From the IMG/VR virus record IMGVR_UViG_3300002092_001594, positions 51,225 through 115,224 of that record: a stretch of DNA of 64,000 bases; one strand, written 5' to 3'. A program made the translations under genes and the position numbers. Each line of letters begins with the position of its first letter. Position 1 is the first letter of the stretch. The stretch comes from a virus. Below the pieces are notes generated by a model. It saw nothing but the letters and a program-made list of their open reading frames with translations, was not told where the DNA came from and searched no databases. Shown in pieces: positions 29,571-51,582 of the stretch.

Positions 29571-30110
29571 TTAGATTTTAATACATTCAATATTCAAGCT
29601 TATTAAAGTACCGTTCTCTTTATCCATATGTGGAATATAAGCTTGTGAATAGTCATCAAAAGTACCGTGATCTACTTGTTTCCAGTCCCAGAGCTTTATA
29701 TTACTGAAGCCATTAAGGCTTAATAAAAAGTCTAAAGAACTATAATCGTAAATTGTTTTATGGTAGATTGTCTTATCTCCCATTTGCATTTTACCGTACA
29801 GAGGACCTAGGAATTTACTGATACTATGATCACTTGTATATAGTTTAACTATTTTTTTGAAGTCAGGAACTGATAATCTTAATATGCCGCCAGGTTTTAA
29901 GACCCTACGCCATTCATTTAGGACTGTAACAGCTTCTTCTCTATCAAAATACTCAAATACATGCGAGGCATAAATTAAGCTTACTGTATTATCTTCAAAC
30001 GGTATGTTTGTAATATCGTGAGAATGTAAATGAGGAAAATCTCCGCCGTCTATATGTGTCCATTCCGGACCAAAATCTTTTTTTCCGCAACCTAAATGTA
30101 ATTTTATCAT
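29571..30110 (-). CDS. Class I SAM methyltransferase
   Basis: LHLGCG, IYASHVFE, EWRRVLKPGG. Confidence 0.85.
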   Translation of the reverse strand: MIKLHLGCGKKDFGPEWTHIDGGDFPHLHSHDITNIPFEDNTVSLIYASHVFEYFDREEAVTVLNEWRRVLKPGGILRLSVPDFKKIVKLYTSDHSISKFLGPLYGKMQMGDKTIYHKTIYDYSSLDFLLSLNGFSNIKLWDWKQVDHGTFDDYSQAYIPHMDKENGTLISLNIECIKI

Positions 30111-30676
30111 ACTAGTTTTTTTTTTATTTTAATTCCAATATTAGTTGCAATCATAAATCTCACATCTTGTGATTTATTCTCCTGTGTTCTATGAAGGTAC
30201 CAACCTGGCATAACAACTACATCGTTTTCTTTTACCGGTACTCTTTTCCAACTCCAACTTTCATCTTGAAAAGGTACAAACTTGTAGGAGTCGTAGCTTG
30301 GATTTTTAACTTCTAATACTTCGGAATTTTCAGGTATTCTAATATAGGCACAAATAACAGCAACAACGTCCCCGTGGTTATGCTCTAATTTACTTTCACC
30401 GTAAGATGACGACCTTAACCAGGAATCTTCAATATAGTATTCATGATTGTTTGGTAGTCCCCATTTTTCGGTTATAATTTTCTTGTAGAGAGGTTCAAGA
30501 TAATCATAGTAACCTTTAAACATATCGACTTTGTGTGGTTTAAAATTTGCACCATATCTACCGTAAACATCATCGTATTCTAAATGGTATTGATGACAAA
30601 ATTCTTTTATTAAATCCCATTTAAAATCATACTCAAGCTTATAGATTTCGTTATCAAATAGTTTTACTTGTTCCAT
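30107..30676 (-). CDS. 2OG-Fe(II) oxygenase (TIGR02466-like)
   Basis: EHNH, MPGWYLHRT, R..IA.N. Confidence 0.75.
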   Translation of the reverse strand: MEQVKLFDNEIYKLEYDFKWDLIKEFCHQYHLEYDDVYGRYGANFKPHKVDMFKGYYDYLEPLYKKIITEKWGLPNNHEYYIEDSWLRSSSYGESKLEHNHGDVVAVICAYIRIPENSEVLEVKNPSYDSYKFVPFQDESWSWKRVPVKENDVVVMPGWYLHRTQENKSQDVRFMIATNIGIKIKKKLV

Positions 30677-31346
30677 CTTTTAATTGATTAAGGTTATTAC
30701 CTTTTACAAATCGCTGTGAGTAAAAGTTCTTAAAGTCTGAATGTAATACTGTTATATCTTGTGTTGTATAGACCTGCAGCCAAACTCTCCTTGGTTTATC
30801 AGATTTATTCTCTTCTGAGTAGTGTAGCGTTTCTCCATCCCAAACAATAATATCTCCTGCTTTTGAGTAAGCGGTTACATACTCTCCTGTTTTTTTATTT
30901 AGTAACCTAACAGGACCATTTTCATCTGTAAAGTCATCTAATACCCAACAACAAGTTATGCTTCGGTACCAGCCTTCAGAAGCCATTTGTGGATTAGGTC
31001 CATATCCATTATCACTATGAGGATCAAAAGTGAAATTATCGTTAGGTAGTTTAACTACTATTTGATCGTTAAATAAATAAATTTCATCAGTATCTAACAG
31101 TTCACTTGCTATGTCGTACATTAAATCAGAAGTGTAGAATTCAAACAGTTTATCGTACTCGGTACTAGCGACATCTAAGCCTGTCCAGTATTTCATAAGA
31201 CCAAACGGACGAGGCTGTCCTATTAAATTTTCATTAATAGTCCTATTCCTATAATCTAAAGTAATCTCTCTTGCTGTATCTAAAAATTCAGGAGTTAATT
31301 TATTGCTAAAAGTAATATATCCATTTTCTTCAAATTCTATATTCAT
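30654..31346 (-). CDS. PhyH-like 2OG-Fe(II) dioxygenase
   Basis: PHSD, LDDFT.ENG, AGD...W...LH.S..N.S..PRR. Confidence 0.85.
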   Translation of the reverse strand: MNIEFEENGYITFSNKLTPEFLDTAREITLDYRNRTINENLIGQPRPFGLMKYWTGLDVASTEYDKLFEFYTSDLMYDIASELLDTDEIYLFNDQIVVKLPNDNFTFDPHSDNGYGPNPQMASEGWYRSITCCWVLDDFTDENGPVRLLNKKTGEYVTAYSKAGDIIVWDGETLHYSEENKSDKPRRVWLQVYTTQDITVLHSDFKNFYSQRFVKGNNLNQLKDGTSKTI

Positions 31347-31348
31347 AC

Positions 31349-31921
31349 TTAACCTCTTTTAATTTTACATACCCAGGAAACATCAGCAAATGCTTCAAAG
31401 TTGTACGGTACTAATGAATTTCTAATTGAACATTCTTCTATATCTTCATCTTGAATTTCCAACCAATTCCATTTCTTATTATAAAACTCCTGTCCGAATA
31501 TTGTAAAATTAGAGACGTAGTCGTGTGCCATTATAACATCTCCTTCTTTTAAGAATGCTGAAAAAGTGTTAAACTCTTTCGGTTTATCTCCACCATCGCA
31601 TAGTAATAGGATTCTACCGTGGTTCTGTATTAAACTCTGTAAGTCGTACTCAAAAATATTAATATGGTTTATATCAATACCTTTACTAATTAAGTTATTA
31701 TGAGTACTATGAGGATCTTCGATATCAAACGACATCAGCTTATAGCTTAGACTGTGTTCAGCTTTAAAATCATATAAAAATTCAACAAAACCACCTACTG
31801 CAGTTCCAATCTCTACAATTAAATCAAAAGGCTCTTCTAATAGGAACTTCTCAAAGACACCCCAAGCATTAAATTGCTGCTGTGCTTTGTATTTGCCTTT
31901 ATATGTAGAATACATGTCCAT
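31349..31921 (-). CDS. CmcI/Methyltransf_24-like methyltransferase
   Basis: VEIGTAVGG, CDGG, LKEGD.IMAHD. Confidence 0.7.
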   Translation of the reverse strand: MDMYSTYKGKYKAQQQFNAWGVFEKFLLEEPFDLIVEIGTAVGGFVEFLYDFKAEHSLSYKLMSFDIEDPHSTHNNLISKGIDINHINIFEYDLQSLIQNHGRILLLCDGGDKPKEFNTFSAFLKEGDVIMAHDYVSNFTIFGQEFYNKKWNWLEIQDEDIEECSIRNSLVPYNFEAFADVSWVCKIKRG

Positions 31922-31927
31922 AAACTG

Positions 31928-31957
31928 TAATATAACCTTTTTAACAATATTATCAAA
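31928..31957 (-). promoter_or_regulatory. Bacteroidota-type promoter
   Basis: TTTG-N19-TATATTA. Confidence 0.45.
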
Positions 31958-31961
31958 CTGT

Positions 31962-33005
31962 TTATATGAGTTTTTTAGTGTTTATGTTGATTTTAGTACT
32001 ATTTTTAAAGCTATTATACTGTTCTAGGATAGTATCCCACTTCTCTTCTGAGATTACTGAGGACTGCTTTCTGTATTCTTCGGCAAATAGACTCCATGTT
32101 GAGGTATTTGACTTTATTAAGAATTTACAAAAACTTAAAGCAAATAAATCAACCATATTACATATTGTAAGCTCTTTCTCATCAGTATCGATAATATCTC
32201 CAGATAGAGTAAGGAGTTCTTTAATCTTACCTATTATAGTTTCTTTAAGAATAATATTCTTACCGTATTTTTCGACGTAATATGAAATTAAGTAAAAAGG
32301 TAAATCTGTGCTAATGTAGAACTTTTGATTTGGATTTATTTTTAAAAAATTATCAATAATATTAAAATAAACCTCATCATTGATATAAGGATACCCTTCG
32401 TGATTGTATATATAAATTTTACTCCTAAAATCAAGGTAGGATTCTTTTATGTTAGACGATTCAATGTCTATTTTATCTTTGTCGTATGCAACGCCAGAGC
32501 CTCTTCTAAGATGTATACCTATTGCATCCTTAGTAATATCTTTTAAATAGTCTTCTACTAAGTAGTTTTTTATTTTTATATGGGATAATGGACGTACTTT
32601 ATTTTGATACTCAGTCTGTAGTGTGTTTAGAAAGGTAGAAGTGAGAAGTTCGTCCCTTTCATTAAATCCGCTAAAATCAAAAGTGTAGGTCAAGTGGTTA
32701 CAGTCTGCTAATTGCTTTGCAGCATACATATGATGGCAAAAGTCTTCTCGTACTTCCTTAATGTCAGGAATATTAATAACTTTTTGATCTATGTTTTGTA
32801 CTAAGGATGTGTGAGGTAGAAAAATAAAGTCATTGCTAACTTCAGGCCATTCTGTTCGATCCATCAATATACGATGACCTTTTCCTAATGTTTCTCTTAA
32901 ATAATATGCTATCTCCCAATTCACAACCCTATTACCGAAACTTGTATCTAAATTATGCCACACGAATCGTTTGTTAATCCACATTAGCGATTTTTCAGAA
33001 TCCAT
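31962..33005 (-). CDS. GT-B fucosyltransferase-like glycosyltransferase (GT11/NodZ-like)
   Basis: FGNR, GIHLRRG, FYISTD, DLFALS.C...S..STWS. Confidence 0.75.
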   Translation of the reverse strand: MDSEKSLMWINKRFVWHNLDTSFGNRVVNWEIAYYLRETLGKGHRILMDRTEWPEVSNDFIFLPHTSLVQNIDQKVINIPDIKEVREDFCHHMYAAKQLADCNHLTYTFDFSGFNERDELLTSTFLNTLQTEYQNKVRPLSHIKIKNYLVEDYLKDITKDAIGIHLRRGSGVAYDKDKIDIESSNIKESYLDFRSKIYIYNHEGYPYINDEVYFNIIDNFLKINPNQKFYISTDLPFYLISYYVEKYGKNIILKETIIGKIKELLTLSGDIIDTDEKELTICNMVDLFALSFCKFLIKSNTSTWSLFAEEYRKQSSVISEEKWDTILEQYNSFKNSTKININTKKLI

Positions 33006-33160
33006 TAGCTTTGTGATGCCTTTAGTAACGTAATAAATTTGCTTATGATATTGTTTGATTGTGCCTTGTGCTTATCACTTAAAGGCTTCATTACTCTTTC
33101 TAAAGTAATTGCTTGATCTACCTTTTTATATACTATCTTATTTAATGTAGTCTCTGACAT
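33005..33160 (-). CDS. 51-aa hypothetical protein (not in ORF track)
   Basis: MSETTLNKIVYKKVDQAITLERVMKPLSDKHKAQSNNIISKFITLLKASQS; fills the gap exactly, TAATG-coupled to the next gene. Confidence 0.65.
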   Translation of the reverse strand: MSETTLNKIVYKKVDQAITLERVMKPLSDKHKAQSNNIISKFITLLKASQS

Positions 33161-33167
33161 GTTATTA

Positions 33168-35018
33168 TTATTTATTGTGAACTAAAAGTCCGTTTGCAAA
33201 GAAGTTATGATTATCTGCTACCGTAAAGATATACATTGTAGTTGGATTTGTATGTAATAAGATGCTGCTAAATTCTGAAATTTCTACAATACTTGTTGCT
33301 TGTCCGGTTCTTGTATATAATGAATTACCTACTTCTAGTTTATTACCTTCTGTAGTTGAGCCGTCACGTGATGCTAATGTAAGGTCTGCTTTATAGTATG
33401 GATGGTCTAAAGTTGAAGTAATTGATTTACTGTCTGCAGTATAGAGATTAATAATATTATCTTTAGTAGTTTGAACAGGATTAGAAACTGCTTTAGGTTC
33501 AACTTCTCTAGTTGTTTCATTAAATGAAGCTACTACATCTCCTTCAACAATATCTTCAATGTTTTTAAAAGAACCATCAGCCATTTCAATTTGAGTTCCT
33601 GCTGCAAAGCAATTATGAGCTATTGTAAAGAAAGTACTCATACTAAATCCGTGAATATTCTTAGTTGCTAATATAAAGTTATCTTCTTCCTCAAGGTTTA
33701 ATGCATAAACAGTTTGAGGCTCTTCAAAAATTACTAATTCAATTGAATTTACAGTAACTAGAGTACCATTACTTGAAAGAATTGAGTCTCCGGTCTTAAT
33801 ATCTAAAACTCTTCGGTATTTTATAGTATTTGTTTCTTTATTATATACTAATAATCTCGTCTCACCTCCTATTACTATCTCTTCACCATCTCCAAAATTT
33901 ATAGAGGTCATTTCGTTAGTATAAGTTAAGCCGCTATAGATATCAACTAAAGTTGAAATAGTTTCATGTGATCCTTCTGGTAATACGTTACCGCTTATTA
34001 ACCAGTCTCTAATAATAGCCTCGTCATCTGTGTTTGGAGCACTTTCTATAGAGTAAGACTTAAATTTATCGCCTATCTTTACGTCTTTAATTTGAATAGT
34101 GTTACCTTCTTCGTCTAAAATTTCAGTATCTCCAATAAACCCATGTCTAATATTTTTAACATGGTTTGTTGCAAACTCATAATAATGTTTATTAGATACT
34201 TTATTAACTAATGATTTATCGTCGAATCCAACTTCAGTCGGCAAATCAAGAACGGCTAAAATTTCATAGTCAGCAACAGTACATAAATCTAGATTAGGTC
34301 CGTATACGATTTGAAATGAACGAACTGAACTAACCTTATTATTATTACTTTCAACTGCAGCTGGTGAGTAGTGGTATTGTTGTAATACTAAATTGTGATC
34401 ATTTATTTCTTCTAAGAAAGAATTAAGTCTATTCTGTATTGGTAGTTCGGATTGGCCTATTTTATAAAAGCCGTGTGATTTATGTTCTTCAATTGTTGAC
34501 TTTACAATAACATCCGGAATATTACCTTGATTTAATAAGTCAATATCAAGTGTATTGTAGTCTCCATTCAAGTTAGATGAATGGTAAAAATTAACAGTAG
34601 ATTGAGAATCGCCTGCATCAGCAAATAACTTTAATAAGTTTAATGTGCCTTTAGCGTATTCAGAATCCAATATTGATGTCTCATCGTACGCCATTCTTAA
34701 AACAAAGGTACTACCGTTATCGTCGATTGCTGGAGGAAAGATACTATCTTCAGGAGTCAAGATTGGATTTAGTGTAATAGAAGGAGCGCTTTTCTCTAGG
34801 GATTCTCTTAGTGATTCAATAATAGGGTACTGAATACTATGCTTATACACCACGGTCAATTCCGTAATTGCATTATTGTTTAATACGTTAAAAAATTCAG
34901 ACCAATCGAATACAGATTTTTGAGATTCAATAATACCAGTATCAGTATTTATCTCAATTAAGCGCAAATCGTCGTTTTGGTCTCTAACAAAATCAGCCGA
35001 AAAAAAAGTTCCTTTCAT
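33168..35018 (-). CDS. Circularly permuted ATP-grasp-like domain fused to two tandem Hint (intein-like) domains
   Basis: N-terminal ADF..D....LIEINT then VIVK, VLQQY, SVR; Hint1 GFIGDTEI...IAHN; Hint2 CFAAGTQI...TLDHP...LVHNK. Confidence 0.75.
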   Translation of the reverse strand: MKGTFFSADFVRDQNDDLRLIEINTDTGIIESQKSVFDWSEFFNVLNNNAITELTVVYKHSIQYPIIESLRESLEKSAPSITLNPILTPEDSIFPPAIDDNGSTFVLRMAYDETSILDSEYAKGTLNLLKLFADAGDSQSTVNFYHSSNLNGDYNTLDIDLLNQGNIPDVIVKSTIEEHKSHGFYKIGQSELPIQNRLNSFLEEINDHNLVLQQYHYSPAAVESNNNKVSSVRSFQIVYGPNLDLCTVADYEILAVLDLPTEVGFDDKSLVNKVSNKHYYEFATNHVKNIRHGFIGDTEILDEEGNTIQIKDVKIGDKFKSYSIESAPNTDDEAIIRDWLISGNVLPEGSHETISTLVDIYSGLTYTNEMTSINFGDGEEIVIGGETRLLVYNKETNTIKYRRVLDIKTGDSILSSNGTLVTVNSIELVIFEEPQTVYALNLEEEDNFILATKNIHGFSMSTFFTIAHNCFAAGTQIEMADGSFKNIEDIVEGDVVASFNETTREVEPKAVSNPVQTTKDNIINLYTADSKSITSTLDHPYYKADLTLASRDGSTTEGNKLEVGNSLYTRTGQATSIVEISEFSSILLHTNPTTMYIFTVADNHNFFANGLLVHNK

Positions 35019-35028
35019 AAAATTACCA

Positions 35029-35050
35029 GTTTTATATAAATATCTACTAA
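35029..35050 (-). repeat. 22-bp element copy 2 (putative late promoter)
   Basis: Identical to 26842-26863. Confidence 0.85.
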
Positions 35051-35085
35051 ATTCAGATATTCAAGTCAATTATGTATATATATGT

Positions 35086-36159
35086 CTATACGATCTTCTT
35101 TGTTATATCTACTACGTCGTGTAAATTGTGATATACCTGCGGCTCAATCCATATCTTCTTAGCTTCTTCAATAAAATCACTGTATTCAGGATGTATTGGA
35201 TCCCAGACTTTAACGAATTCGTATTGATTACAGTTAAATGTTCCCCAGTTATTAATTTTAATGAATAAAACAGATGCTTTTTTACCGAATATTCCTTTAA
35301 TTAAGTCAGCAAACATCCTCATTTCTTTATAATTAGCTTGTTGAACTACAAATGACGTTCTTACCTCTTCTAAACTCGGAATTGTACTAATAAATTTAAG
35401 GTTTTTGATTAAATTATCCCAATTACCGTTTAATCTAGTTTTATTTTCATAGGTTTCTTTAGTTGCAGCGTCAATACTGATCTCACAGGTCTTTACATAC
35501 TTGTGAATATTCGGCATAGTGTTCCACATCTTCTCGTTCCACATAGATGCATTAGTATGCAAGTGAATACTCTTAAGTTTTGGGTATTCATCCTTGTTAA
35601 AGTTTTGTAAGAAAGCTCTGAATGTGTTAGAAACGAAGGGATCTCCAGATGCAGTGAAGTATAGTGTCTTAGCATCCTTTGAAAACAGTCTTTTCATCTC
35701 TGTCATAGTGTCTTCTATCTCTATTAAATTTTCTGGAGTAGCTTTATAGGTCTCTTTTCTACAAGAAGGACATTTATAATTACAGCTCTTGTCGAAATTA
35801 TGTTCTATTTTTTCAGGACCTACTTCCATATAAGGGTCTTGATTAATAAACTTCTCTTTAAACTTATTTGGTAGGTCGTCCTTGTGGTAAATTGGGCCTT
35901 TAGGATCTACTTCATTAAACTTCAATAGATATGATAGGTATGGACATTGAGTAGCATCACAATGTCTGTATGACCCATCCATTACCGATCTTCTTGACTC
36001 TAAAGAATCTTCTGAGTTCCAAATCTCACTTAAAGGTTGGTTTTCAGGATTTCTTTTAATTAGCCACTCAGGAATACAGAGGAAATATTGATTTTCTTCA
36101 TGTATGTGTAGAAATCTAAAAGGTGCTGTACACACATAGTTTTTTAAATCAACTTTCAT
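35086..36159 (-). CDS. Radical SAM protein with N-terminal SPASM/twitch-like Cys domain
   Basis: CTAPF..C...CD..QCP; CNYKCPSC; SGDPF; LHTNA; ISIDA. Confidence 0.85.
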   Translation of the reverse strand: MKVDLKNYVCTAPFRFLHIHEENQYFLCIPEWLIKRNPENQPLSEIWNSEDSLESRRSVMDGSYRHCDATQCPYLSYLLKFNEVDPKGPIYHKDDLPNKFKEKFINQDPYMEVGPEKIEHNFDKSCNYKCPSCRKETYKATPENLIEIEDTMTEMKRLFSKDAKTLYFTASGDPFVSNTFRAFLQNFNKDEYPKLKSIHLHTNASMWNEKMWNTMPNIHKYVKTCEISIDAATKETYENKTRLNGNWDNLIKNLKFISTIPSLEEVRTSFVVQQANYKEMRMFADLIKGIFGKKASVLFIKINNWGTFNCNQYEFVKVWDPIHPEYSDFIEEAKKIWIEPQVYHNLHDVVDITKKIV

Positions 36160-37233
36160 TTATATAATCTCCTTTTTTATTTCAATAAATTCGTACATGT
36201 TATGAAACACTTGTGTATCTCTCCAAACTTTATTAAACTCTTTTTTAAAAAGATCGTGTTCAGGATGATTAACATCCCATACTTTCTTAAGTTTAAATTC
36301 TCCTTCGGTAAAAGTATCCCAGTTGTTTATCTTACCAAAAAACACATGAACTTTTTTGCCAAAGATTGATTTCATTAGCTTCAAAAATATTTCCATTTCA
36401 CCATAATTACTATCTTGCACTACAAAAGAAGTCTTAATATACTTTAATACAGGTATCTTTGCTATGAAACGTAAGTTATCAATTAAGTTATCCCAATTAC
36501 CTCCTAAACGTGTCTTATTTTCATAAGTGTCTCTGGTACCTGCATCTATACTTATCTCACAGCTCTTAACATACGGCCAAACATTTTTCATGCTATCCCA
36601 CATCTTTTCGTTCCACATTGACGCATTAGTGTGTAAGTGTATGTTCTTTAACTTTGGATACTTCTTAGGGTCAAACGTTCGTAAAAAATCTCTAAAGCCA
36701 ACTGATACGAATGGATCACCACTTCCAGTAATAAACATTGTGGATAAATTCTTTGCGAACTTAGTTTCTATTTCTAAAAGGGTAGCTTTTACTCTTTCAA
36801 TACCTTTTGAGTTTTCAACAATTAAGTCAACTCGACATGATGGACATTTATAATTACAAGTTCTATCAAATGCAAATTGGATAACAGAAGGACCAACATT
36901 CATCTCTCCAGTTTCGATATTATAGTTATCGGTTATATAGCTTGGTGTATCCTTTCTTTCAACTATTGGATTTACATTATTTAATTTCTTATCGTTTATT
37001 AATTCTGATAAAAAAGGACATTGCTTTTTATCACAATACTTGTAAGAGCCATCGTGAATTGATTTTCTTATTTCTTTAGCTTCCTCAGAATTCCAAACTT
37101 CATCTAATGGCTTTTTCATATCTGGAGATATGTTGTTGGGTAACCAGGTGGGACAACACATGAAGATAGCCTGATTGTGAATTTCAATATTTACAAACGG
37201 AGCTGTGCATATGTAATTTTTTAAATCTCTCAT
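36160..37233 (-). CDS. Radical SAM protein, tandem paralog of the neighbour
   Basis: Same motifs, same length (357 aa). Confidence 0.85.
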   Translation of the reverse strand: MRDLKNYICTAPFVNIEIHNQAIFMCCPTWLPNNISPDMKKPLDEVWNSEEAKEIRKSIHDGSYKYCDKKQCPFLSELINDKKLNNVNPIVERKDTPSYITDNYNIETGEMNVGPSVIQFAFDRTCNYKCPSCRVDLIVENSKGIERVKATLLEIETKFAKNLSTMFITGSGDPFVSVGFRDFLRTFDPKKYPKLKNIHLHTNASMWNEKMWDSMKNVWPYVKSCEISIDAGTRDTYENKTRLGGNWDNLIDNLRFIAKIPVLKYIKTSFVVQDSNYGEMEIFLKLMKSIFGKKVHVFFGKINNWDTFTEGEFKLKKVWDVNHPEHDLFKKEFNKVWRDTQVFHNMYEFIEIKKEII

Positions 37234-37812
37234 TTATATTAATTTATTTTTTTTAAGTACATATCCATTTGGTGCTATATTTGATTTGAATGTCTCTAAT
37301 TGTGTAAAAATATTTTGTTCACTACTTTTCATTCTTATCTTTTTCCCATTTATAATAGATAACTCATAATCGTAAGGAAATTTTATTTTCCTATTATTAA
37401 AATAGTCTAGTAACTTAATAGCGCCTTGATAAGATATAAAATATGAATAACAGCTACCCTCTACTCCTAAGTTATAAAGGTCAAACTCTCTAAAGTCCAC
37501 ACTCCTCCAATCAAAACTATTAACCATATCGATATCATCCTCTATTATTAGTATATTACTTCTAGATTCAGCTGATAATTTAATTAATGACAGATGTGAT
37601 AGAAATGTTGCCATAGTTGCTTTTTGGCTAAAGTCCCATTCGATCAAAAAATCATCAACAAAATATTTTTTTTCTAATTCTACTGTAACATCCTTTGGTT
37701 CTACTGCATTAAAAAAATCAAACTCTAATCCGATTCTATCTTTTATAGATTTCATCCATATTCTTCTATCCTTATCTAATTCTAAGGAAATGCAGTAGGT
37801 TTTGAATTCCAT
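37234..37812 (-). CDS. Glycosyltransferase family 25
   Basis: YCISL..RR, FF.AV, LSH, LIIEDD, Y.IS..GA.KL. Confidence 0.8.
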   Translation of the reverse strand: MEFKTYCISLELDKDRRIWMKSIKDRIGLEFDFFNAVEPKDVTVELEKKYFVDDFLIEWDFSQKATMATFLSHLSLIKLSAESRSNILIIEDDIDMVNSFDWRSVDFREFDLYNLGVEGSCYSYFISYQGAIKLLDYFNNRKIKFPYDYELSIINGKKIRMKSSEQNIFTQLETFKSNIAPNGYVLKKNKLI

Positions 37813-38457
37813 TTAAATATACTTATTATCTTTCACCTTAAAGCTATTGTGAATATATAATGCGTCGTTATTGCTACTGAATAGTTTAGTGTATCCATAC
37901 CCATATAACAAGTTATCGAAGTCTTCATACGAAGTGCCTGACTCATAGAAAATATCAAATGCGCAGATTTCTGACCAAATGCATGCTGGTCTGTAGTTGC
38001 CTAGTTTACTCAATATCTTATATTCTGCGCCTTCAGCATCAATATGTATGAAGTCTGGTGAGACATTATTTTCATCGCAGAATTTATTTAGAATTATGCT
38101 TTGAACAAAGTAGGGTTTTCCGTACGTCAAATTAAAATACTCAGTTGGAATTGGTTTTAATGTGCTACTAGATATGTTCCAATTTTTTTGACCATTGAGT
38201 GTATCGGATGGATAAAATATTATTTCACCTTCAGTATCAGATAGTGCATAATGAAAGTAATTTATTCCATGGTCAGCTGCTGTTATGCTATTACTTTCTT
38301 TAAATTTTTCATTACATTCGAATGCATAAAATTCTGCGTTTGGTAAATGATTTTTAAAGTCAATTGTATCACCTAAGTCGGAACATCCAATGTTGAAAAA
38401 ATTTATTTTCTTATTGTAAAAATTATTTACCAAAAAATCTGTACTTAAATCGCTCAT
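37813..38457 (-). CDS. FkbM-family methyltransferase
   Basis: NIGC, AFEC, ALSD, IHIDAEGAE. Confidence 0.85.
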   Translation of the reverse strand: MSDLSTDFLVNNFYNKKINFFNIGCSDLGDTIDFKNHLPNAEFYAFECNEKFKESNSITAADHGINYFHYALSDTEGEIIFYPSDTLNGQKNWNISSSTLKPIPTEYFNLTYGKPYFVQSIILNKFCDENNVSPDFIHIDAEGAEYKILSKLGNYRPACIWSEICAFDIFYESGTSYEDFDNLLYGYGYTKLFSSNNDALYIHNSFKVKDNKYI

Positions 38458-50695: not shown

Positions 50696-51582
50696 TTTAA
50701 CAAATTATTTTCTTTAATGTATCTAATTAACTCTTTAGCCCATACCATATGAGATTCAGGAGAAGGATGCCATCCATGTAATACAGGATTAGCGTCGGAT
50801 TTTTTTATAAAGCTACGAAAAGTATTATCTGGTAGATCTTTTTTATAGAATCGAATTGGATCTACAGTGTCCCATAAGTCGGCATAATCGTAGGTATGAA
50901 TTCTTCTTTTTGCATCTTCGTCTGTTGATACGTGGTAAGGTCCTCCTCCAGATTGAATACGAACTAATTCTTCTCTAATACTTAAATCTTGCCAGTCTTT
51001 AATGTCTACAGGACCTGGTGCTTGATAAAAAGCATTAAAGCACATCCATTTTATATTATGGGCATTGCAAAAATTTTGAAGCTGTAGCACATTCATAACA
51101 TACCTAGGCATATATTCTTCTGGATGCCATAAATATTCCACGTAAAGTTTCCAAAAGTCTTCTTGAGCTTTACTAGAAAAATGTGGAACATTTGGCCACA
51201 GTCTAAATCTTTCGTGGAATCCAGTTTCGTCTTTGTACCAAAAAACATTTCTTTCAGGCGATGACCATCCAACTACGACAAGTAGATTTTCAGTCGATCT
51301 TCTTTTTGCTATGTATTCCTTTGATAAGTATATCATAGTTCTGTTAAGAATTGTTCCATTATCGTCGGCTGGATAAGCTAAGTTTGTTACTTCGGCATCT
51401 AATAGTTCTGCTAAGTAGGTTGGAAATATTCTAGGAACTCTATAAGCATCGTTATTTTCCAAAAAATCAAACTTTCCTACATAAGTACCAGGTGGATAAG
51501 TAGCTTGTATTGCTGGATCTACTATTTCGCATCCAAAAACCCAAGAATCTCCATCACATACTATTTCTAATTTTTTACTCAT
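50692..51582 (-). CDS. SGNH-like protein
   Basis: DGDSW..G, NLA, VGWS..ER, HP...H..WA. Confidence 0.7.
   Translation of the reverse strand: MSKKLEIVCDGDSWVFGCEIVDPAIQATYPPGTYVGKFDFLENNDAYRVPRIFPTYLAELLDAEVTNLAYPADDNGTILNRTMIYLSKEYIAKRRSTENLLVVVGWSSPERNVFWYKDETGFHERFRLWPNVPHFSSKAQEDFWKLYVEYLWHPEEYMPRYVMNVLQLQNFCNAHNIKWMCFNAFYQAPGPVDIKDWQDLSIREELVRIQSGGGPYHVSTDEDAKRRIHTYDYADLWDTVDPIRFYKKDLPDNTFRSFIKKSDANPVLHGWHPSPESHMVWAKELIRYIKENNLLK

Follow-up and report, generated by a model that had tools for sequence, protein, structure and literature searches.

Human glutathione synthetase is said, since a report by Polekhina in 1999, to be a circularly permuted ATP-grasp enzyme. Cp1B, homoglutathione synthetase and the YgiC/YjfC proteins are ATP-grasp amide ligases (PMC12568646). 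The A-type bacterial intein-like (BIL) domains have a conserved C-terminal His-Asn and are found in variable regions of proteins (PMC7765530), and BIL2 was reported to splice via an isopeptide made by the epsilon-amine of Lys, dispensing its N-extein or conjugating it to substrates (PMC8616854). The gene analyzed here comes from an uncultured large phage and encodes a protein in which domains of both kinds appear to be joined. The window, i.e., the whole stretch of DNA that was analyzed, consists of 64,000 nt of the virus record IMGVR_UViG_3300002092_001594 (positions 51,225 to 115,224), and a 616-codon open reading frame (ORF) fills positions 33168 to 35018 on its minus strand (P0001; 616 amino acids plus stop). 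The start of the gene was set by the N-terminal sequence MKGTFFS, which is common to the whole family, and a plus-strand reading of the same interval was rejected because its translation is riddled with stops. We favor, with moderate confidence, a protein of three modules, namely a ligase, a cleavage-type Hint (Hint1) and an exchangeable second Hint (Hint2), of which the working unit is ligase-Hint1 together with a small partner protein.

The combination of ligase and Hints is not a chance one, given that metagenomes yielded >518 clusters (90% identity) of full-length homologs, at 45-99% identity, with the same layout. These homologs are about 615-630 amino acids long, with some of about 770 or 926. 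The architecture had been proposed in a first-pass annotation made from this one sequence; among the homologs the layout holds, but the direct contact between the His-Asn of Hint1 and the Cys of Hint2 is variable, as is the number of Hint2 copies. The conserved core is a widespread phage module made up of the ligase, a Cys-less Hint, a tail and a partner gene of 43-53 codons.

The ligase domain spans residues 1-292 (34143..35018, minus strand). Its motifs occur in the order D9/D13 and L20-I-E22-I-N24-T-D-T, followed by VIVK173, K186, QQYH216 and S231-x-R233, and the translation of the minus-strand gene has the D9-to-N24 motif ahead of VIVK, QQY and S-x-R, as claimed in the first-pass annotation. 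An AlphaFold2 (AF2) model of residues 1-292, based on a 116-row alignment, had a predicted local distance difference test score (pLDDT) of 86.9 and a predicted template modeling score (pTM) of 0.84. When this model was compared to the PDB using Foldseek, the top matches were all permuted ATP-grasps (E 9.4e-6 to 1e-3, probability about 1), including 5oeu, 5oes, 7uk8, and 1m0t (E about 1e-5, probability 1.00), and the classes represented were eukaryotic/plant glutathione synthetases, YgiC/YjfC, GspS, trypanothione synthetase, Mfla_0391, 3k1t, and Cp1B. In an independent VIA search, the top 11 chains all belonged to the glutathione synthetase, GspS, YgiC, or Cp1B class (Z 8.5-6.6), and the best match had a Z of 8.5 and a root-mean-square deviation (rmsd) of 5.4 over 206 aligned residues. 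Chains of the permuted class aligned from model residue 1, whereas classical ATP-grasps aligned only from residues 49-52 (TTLL11, Z 5.2; ArgX, 5.0; DdlA, 4.8). This contrast is what a permutation that places the E-x-N hairpin first would predict. No graspetide ligase was present among the structural matches listed for the domain by Foldseek and VIA. Both the ATP-grasp fold anticipated for the N-terminal region and its circular permutation, with E22-x-N24 ahead of K173 and K186, were thus recovered. The models support the identification of residues 1-292 as a predicted circularly permuted ATP-grasp fold of the glutathione synthetase/GspS/YgiC class.

The ligase motifs were found to be invariant, or nearly so, in homologs down to 30% identity, and 12 residues (D9, E22, N24, K59, R108, Y111, E113, D118, Y121, K173, K186, and R233) were invariant in 38 sequences of at least 30% identity. 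By motif resemblance, D9, E22, N24, K173, K186, and R233 would be the metal and ATP ligands. Since the residues at metal/ATP positions do not vary over this range, the domain is probably active.

The ligase is followed by Hint1 (residues 293-469; 33612..34142, minus strand). In an AF2 model of residues 287-616 (pLDDT 90.2), Hint1 (model residues 7-175) matched the Prp8 intein 6owu (VIA Z 15.9, rmsd 2.2, 133 residues) and the RadA intein 2lqm (Z 15.1). Using hhalign, the profiles of Hint1 and Hint2 were aligned over 126 columns in register (E 4.4e-5). Gly293 occupies the Cys1 position of Hint1 and GGETR is found where TxxH belongs, so that the N-terminal nucleophile and the TxxH motif are both missing from a domain that has the Hint fold and retains H468-N469. 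Among 40 distinct sequences, there was no variation at G293, H468, and N469, and none had Cys1 or TxxH, in full agreement with the first-pass description of this Hint. The fold match and the invariant His-Asn, in the absence of Cys1 and TxxH, suggest that Hint1 is an old Hint minus its N-terminal chemistry. Hint1 is fixed throughout the family, and the conservation pattern indicates that its terminal His-Asn is still under selection.

The His-Asn is also retained in a distant subfamily, where a Cys-rich tail of 25-50 amino acids follows it directly. Proteins of this subfamily (P0256, P0260, P0264, P0266, P0268, P0273, P0276, P0279, P0283, P0284, P0286, P0288, and P0291) are 490-540 amino acids long and consist of the same ligase, a Hint ending in His-Asn and a fast-changing tail with at least six cysteines, which usually ends in K or in K plus 1-2 residues. 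A small partner gene is likewise found downstream at their loci (L064-L068). This form looks designed to set free its Cys-rich part as a peptide; alternatively, that part may be a zinc knuckle.

Hint2 (residues 470-615; 33174..33611, minus strand) is an intact, A-type BIL-like cassette and is followed only by the codon for Lys616 and the stop (33168..33173, minus strand). Its signature residues are C470, T536/H539 and H614-N615, then K616 and the stop. As the first-pass annotation had pointed out, Cys470 directly follows N469 and is at the same time Cys1 of the intact Hint. Pfam identified Hint2 as PT-HINT (PF07591; 57.1 bits, where the cut-off is 27.7; 3e-15) and Intein_splicing (2.8e-12). 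The closest PDB sequences were Tetrahymena BIL2 (6tmm/6y75; 5.6e-12) and, in addition, the C. thermocellum BIL 2lwy; in VIA, Hint2 matched 6tmm with a Z of 23.0 (rmsd 1.8, 149 residues aligned, 30% identity) and 2lwy with a Z of 20.7. Hint2 therefore possesses the fold, the profile, Cys1, T-x-x-H, the terminal His-Asn and the non-nucleophilic +1 residue of an A-type BIL. Its catalytic residues are retained in 235-237 of 241 cassettes, and the cassettes are mostly followed directly by K (193) or R (31), together 224 of the 241. The possibility that either Hint is a true intein was rejected, as position 1 of Hint1 is Gly293 and the +1 residue of Hint2 is Lys616, followed by a stop. Lacking Cys1, Hint1 could not form the first thioester, and with Lys at +1, standard transesterification would be impossible for Hint2. 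No second copy of Hint2 was found elsewhere in the 115-kb phage record. In L017, L031, and L052, the last Hint has an altered end (...HNF/Y-I-x-G-x-x-x-SGLGDN...RQ...) without the terminal His-Asn, and the same end occurs in P0153, P0161, P0164, P0165, P0169, P0173, P0183, and P0194. Such altered ends often close in KHL, resembling the KAKHL/KAKHS end of the partner protein.

A comparison of relatives showed that the number and position of intact Hints are not constant. Relatives carry 0-3 intact Hints (1-3 among the IMG/VR relatives); linkers of 0-10 residues separate the His-Asn of Hint1 from the next Cys (none, AP, W, VLS, LGISGS, PIRGVS, PFGAGRGG, and others), and stacks of two or three Hints are joined by linkers of 1-4 residues. 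A profile search of 1.84 billion representatives with the N-domain uncovered natural forms of 460-490 amino acids that have no intact Hint and whose C-termini read HN-K, HN-PAPPPKL, HN-ILAGKV, HN-KVKIEPPK, or HN-KPKQPKK. When intact Hints were deleted on paper, the remnants resembled these Hint2-less tails (AP + RGIPKL is similar to PAPPPKL), and the window protein minus Hint2 leaves nothing plus K, which is comparable to HN-K. The inter-Hint linker was also considered as a hidden peptide product and was rejected, its length being zero here and variable in relatives.

Identities in the host part and in the cassette were frequently discordant. Compared to the window protein, the relative P0003 (locus L001) has 98.3% identity over residues 1-469 but 40% over Hint2, while for P0013 the corresponding values are 54% (host part) and 77.6% (Hint2). 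In 270 of 18,327 pairs, host identity was below 60% yet Hint identity was at least 75%, reaching 96%. At the DNA level, the window and L001 are 97-100% identical through about codon 466, 37-68% identical across Hint2, and again 77-95% identical from about codon 600 into the downstream genes. The replaced stretch corresponds to window positions 33174-33611 versus L001:11408-11860, with breakpoints at the Hint1/Hint2 junction and in the conserved NHNF...LVHNK block. The sharp DNA breakpoints and the discordant identities indicate that Hint2 is an exchangeable cassette, and thus it appears to be a laterally exchanged insertion in the short, lysine-ended tail of its host protein.

The gene for the partner protein (P0146; 33005..33160, minus strand) is located 8 nt downstream of the stop codon and encodes 51 amino acids. 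A homologous ORF of 43-53 amino acids begins 2-21 nt past the stop in all 58 of 58 loci, and the partner is also present in the subfamily with the Cys-rich tail, where it has an identical KAKHL ending. A modeled complex of residues 1-469 with the 51-amino-acid protein had an interface score (ipSAE) of 0.87, compared to 0.00 for the best of three controls. Of 80 solved complexes, 58 attain this mark, as do 2 of 110 mismatched pairs; these benchmark counts apply only roughly here because our own alignments were used for the complex model. At least 95% of contacts were common to the runs, and the pLDDT of the partner was at least 85. In the model, residues 10-14 of the partner form a strand that is paired with residues 425-433 of Hint1, and the helix of the partner packs against helix 128-140 and against the outside of the hairpin formed by residues 8-23; the partner contacts the ligase sheet from its back side. 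The model supports binding of the partner to ligase-Hint1, in which it looks like a bridging, bound subunit more than a substrate. The idea, raised in the first-pass annotation, that the 51-amino-acid neighbor is the substrate of the ligase is not favored, and a position in the active site is disfavored by a model in which the partner occupies the back side of the sheet and contacts a Hint1 strand.

The course of events that these observations support best is the following. The ligase is expected to perform carboxylate-amine ligation, with an ATP-derived acyl-phosphate being captured by an amine. Hint1, together with the ligase, most likely binds the 51-amino-acid product of the next gene, and Asn469 of Hint1 most likely makes a single C-terminal cut via a succinimide, shedding whatever follows. 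Hint2 would be expected to excise itself, through cuts at its two ends or through a lysine-mediated splice of the BIL2 kind, and the working enzyme would afterwards be the ligase-Hint1 pair plus partner. In this particular protein either chemistry would cut the same N469/C470 bond, which is chemically plausible and probably incidental. The junction would then represent the landing site of an insertion and not a conserved device.

Several results weigh against this interpretation. For the ligase, the VIA tool itself ranks a Z of about 8 as middling, and no sequence method puts the N-domain into any ATP-grasp family: none of 38 family members reached a Pfam cut-off (GSP_synth appeared at E 0.04 and ATPgrasp_ST, below cut-off, at E 0.016, each in 2 of the 38), Pfam gave no significant ATP-grasp family for the window protein itself, and profile searches of PDB sequences with the N-domain returned no ATP-grasp. 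The ESM Atlas provided weak leads only, to ATP-grasp and GshA clusters (scores 0.88-0.90). Because sequence-level kinship is missing and the Z is middling, we assign the domain to the permuted-class fold and motif order and not to any curated family. For Hint1, the last strand (residues 461-467) was modeled at a pLDDT below 50. Finally, all 57 IMG/VR relatives retain at least one intact Hint, implying that Hint2 may be needed and not merely tolerated.

The last of these points bears on the first-pass proposal that two chemistries converge on a functional center at N469/C470. According to this proposal, a thioester at Cys470 and cyclization of Asn469 would activate ligase-Hint1 at its C-terminus, so that it could be passed on to a nucleophile. 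The nucleophile might be supplied in cis, by Lys616, or by another protein's lysine, in the manner of hedgehog proteins and Tetrahymena BIL2. The closest solved relative of Hint2 is indeed BIL2 (see above), which forms Lys isopeptides and conjugates its N-extein (PMC8616854); the K or R at +1 is strikingly conserved among the cassettes, and every IMG/VR relative has an intact Hint. What remains of the proposal is the adjacency of the two residues in this protein. As a conserved center, or a principle of design, it was not upheld, since linkers range from 0 to 10 residues, relatives without Hint2 exist and others have two or three stacked Hints, whose linkers of 1-4 residues offer nothing meaningful to conjugate, and the cassette has been swapped between hosts that are 98% identical. 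Unconserved adjacency, variable copy number and swapping together make the convergence look like a by-product of the insertion site, and we consider a functional center at this junction unlikely.

The retention of an intact Hint at 57 of 57 IMG/VR loci, along with the strong conservation of Hint2 catalytic residues, would also fit a required regulatory pro-domain, i.e., a Hint2 that masks ligase-Hint1 or its tail until timed self-removal during infection. A copy number of 0-3, a variable insertion point in the tail and lateral movement are typical of an exchangeable element instead, and catalytic conservation is equally expected of an insertion that removes itself. A pro-domain role therefore seems quite improbable to us. 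That the N-domain is a non-catalytic scaffold of ATP-grasp-like shape in a virion structural or assembly factor is very improbable, for although genes for tail sheath and baseplate lie 4 kb away and sequence-level membership in the ATP-grasps was not found, the residues at canonical Mg/ATP positions are invariant across 30-99% identity and the gene is placed among enzymes, not structural genes.

The gene is part of an island of modifying enzymes (29571..38457, minus strand), recognized from Pfam matches and C-termini, which provides its genomic context. The island encodes a methyltransferase, two 2-oxoglutarate (2OG)-Fe(II) oxygenases, a 347-amino-acid ORF without a Pfam match, two radical SAM enzymes, a GT25 protein and an FkbM methyltransferase, and a carbamoyltransferase is also found nearby. 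The radical SAM enzymes are adjacent paralogs of 357 amino acids located directly upstream of the gene (35086-36159 and 36160-37233), the second of which has a weak SPASM-like match at its N-terminus. At related loci, the commonest neighbors were 2OG-Fe(II) oxygenases (111 copies in 50 loci), radical SAM enzymes, a SET-domain protein and adenosine phosphosulfate (APS) kinase.

Eight of ten enzymes encoded within 29571-38457 end in a hydrophobic dipeptide. Across the window and L001-L057, unrelated enzymes share an end-tag of the form [ILVFMY][ILV]-COOH, often preceded by K, S, T, or N. The end-tag was present on 33.5% of 881 distinct ORFs of at least 100 amino acids, compared to a frequency of 7.6% for this dipeptide at internal positions of proteins. 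Among the individual families, the tag was observed on 93% of 2OG oxygenases, 95% of F6 (a family without a Pfam match), 100% of SET proteins and 68% of radical SAM enzymes, and on about 0% of structural genes.

We also considered a more speculative role for the core, to which we give a low probability as a whole. Ligase, Cys-less Hint, lysine-bearing tail and partner might together form a single-turnover device for making or tagging peptides. In such a device, the ATP-grasp would attach an acyl group to the lysine of the tail or join the tail to the C-terminus of another protein, for which the neighboring enzymes with their common hydrophobic end-tag would be candidates, and Asn cyclization in Hint1 would then release the product. 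The tail in this phage would have been cut down to one Lys and would carry a mobile Hint. If true, the device would be an ATP-driven analog of BIL2-type lysine splicing.

The source record is 115 kb in length (CheckV completeness, 66%) and encodes a tail sheath, a baseplate protein, a ribonucleotide reductase and a DnaB-like helicase. Besides the metagenomic clusters, a profile built from just the N-domain had 340 matches among the 1.84 billion representatives (representatives at 50%), and IMG/VR viral contigs contained 57 further loci with identity down to 29%. In ~50,700 deposited phage genomes, only the Hint2 part was matched and the full ligase-Hint architecture was not found. The sole match in 185,579 bacterial and archaeal species genomes was a 2.8-kb contig (L071; CAYNGR010000277.1) of an uncultured Cyanobium metagenome-assembled genome. 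This contig is probably phage DNA, and it provides a weak hint that picocyanobacteria are hosts of some family members. Residues 1-469 are not covered by any family in Pfam or PHROGs; the single PHROGs match at E below 0.001 was to a family of unknown function that spans Hint2 alone. A stand-alone homolog of the ligase domain, without any Hint, was also identified (P0137; 287 amino acids, 31% identity), and its C-terminus, KKTKKKRRFV, consists of basic residues followed by a hydrophobic pair.

The family is common in large, uncultured aquatic phages. Its members offer a naturally occurring Hint whose sole retained function is predicted to be C-terminal cleavage, a natural collection of intact BIL-type cassettes in the process of being exchanged, and a compact permuted ATP-grasp ligase (predicted) with an obligate mini-subunit. 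The identity of the substrate could reveal a new route of protein or peptide modification in phages, and the cleavage-only Hint and the small cassettes are possible parts for protein engineering.

In the searchable literature on phage ATP-grasp, Hint and BIL proteins, we found no description of a ligase-Hint fusion; the parts are of known kinds, and it is their combination that has not been described there. The predicted ligase has the same fold as eukaryotic glutathione synthetase (2hgs, 1m0t, 5oeu), with the E-x-N hairpin likewise ahead of the ATP-binding lysines, and fold and order are also those of the E. coli peptide-spermidine ligases YgiC/YjfC (7uk8, 7uka), the synthetase domain of GspS (2io7) and the fungal Cp1B ligase of E-64 biosynthesis (9cjn; PMC12568646). 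It differs from these known permuted ligases in its length (292 amino acids versus 370-480), in being fused to Hints and in having no detectable sequence similarity to them. Hint1 and Hint2 share the Hint fold of canonical inteins (Z 15-20 to mini-inteins), and the His-Asn/Cys boundary at 469/470 resembles a C-terminal splice junction, but unlike in canonical inteins, no homing endonuclease is present. Like A-type BILs (Tetrahymena BUBL BIL2, 6tmm/6y75; 2lwy; PF07591), Hint2 has Cys1, TxxH and His-Asn followed by a residue other than Cys, Ser, or Thr. In contrast to the known A-type BILs, its C-flank is one Lys before the stop, its N-flank is another Hint, the cassette occurs in 0-3 tandem copies, and neither a toxin nor a ubiquitin-like domain is attached.

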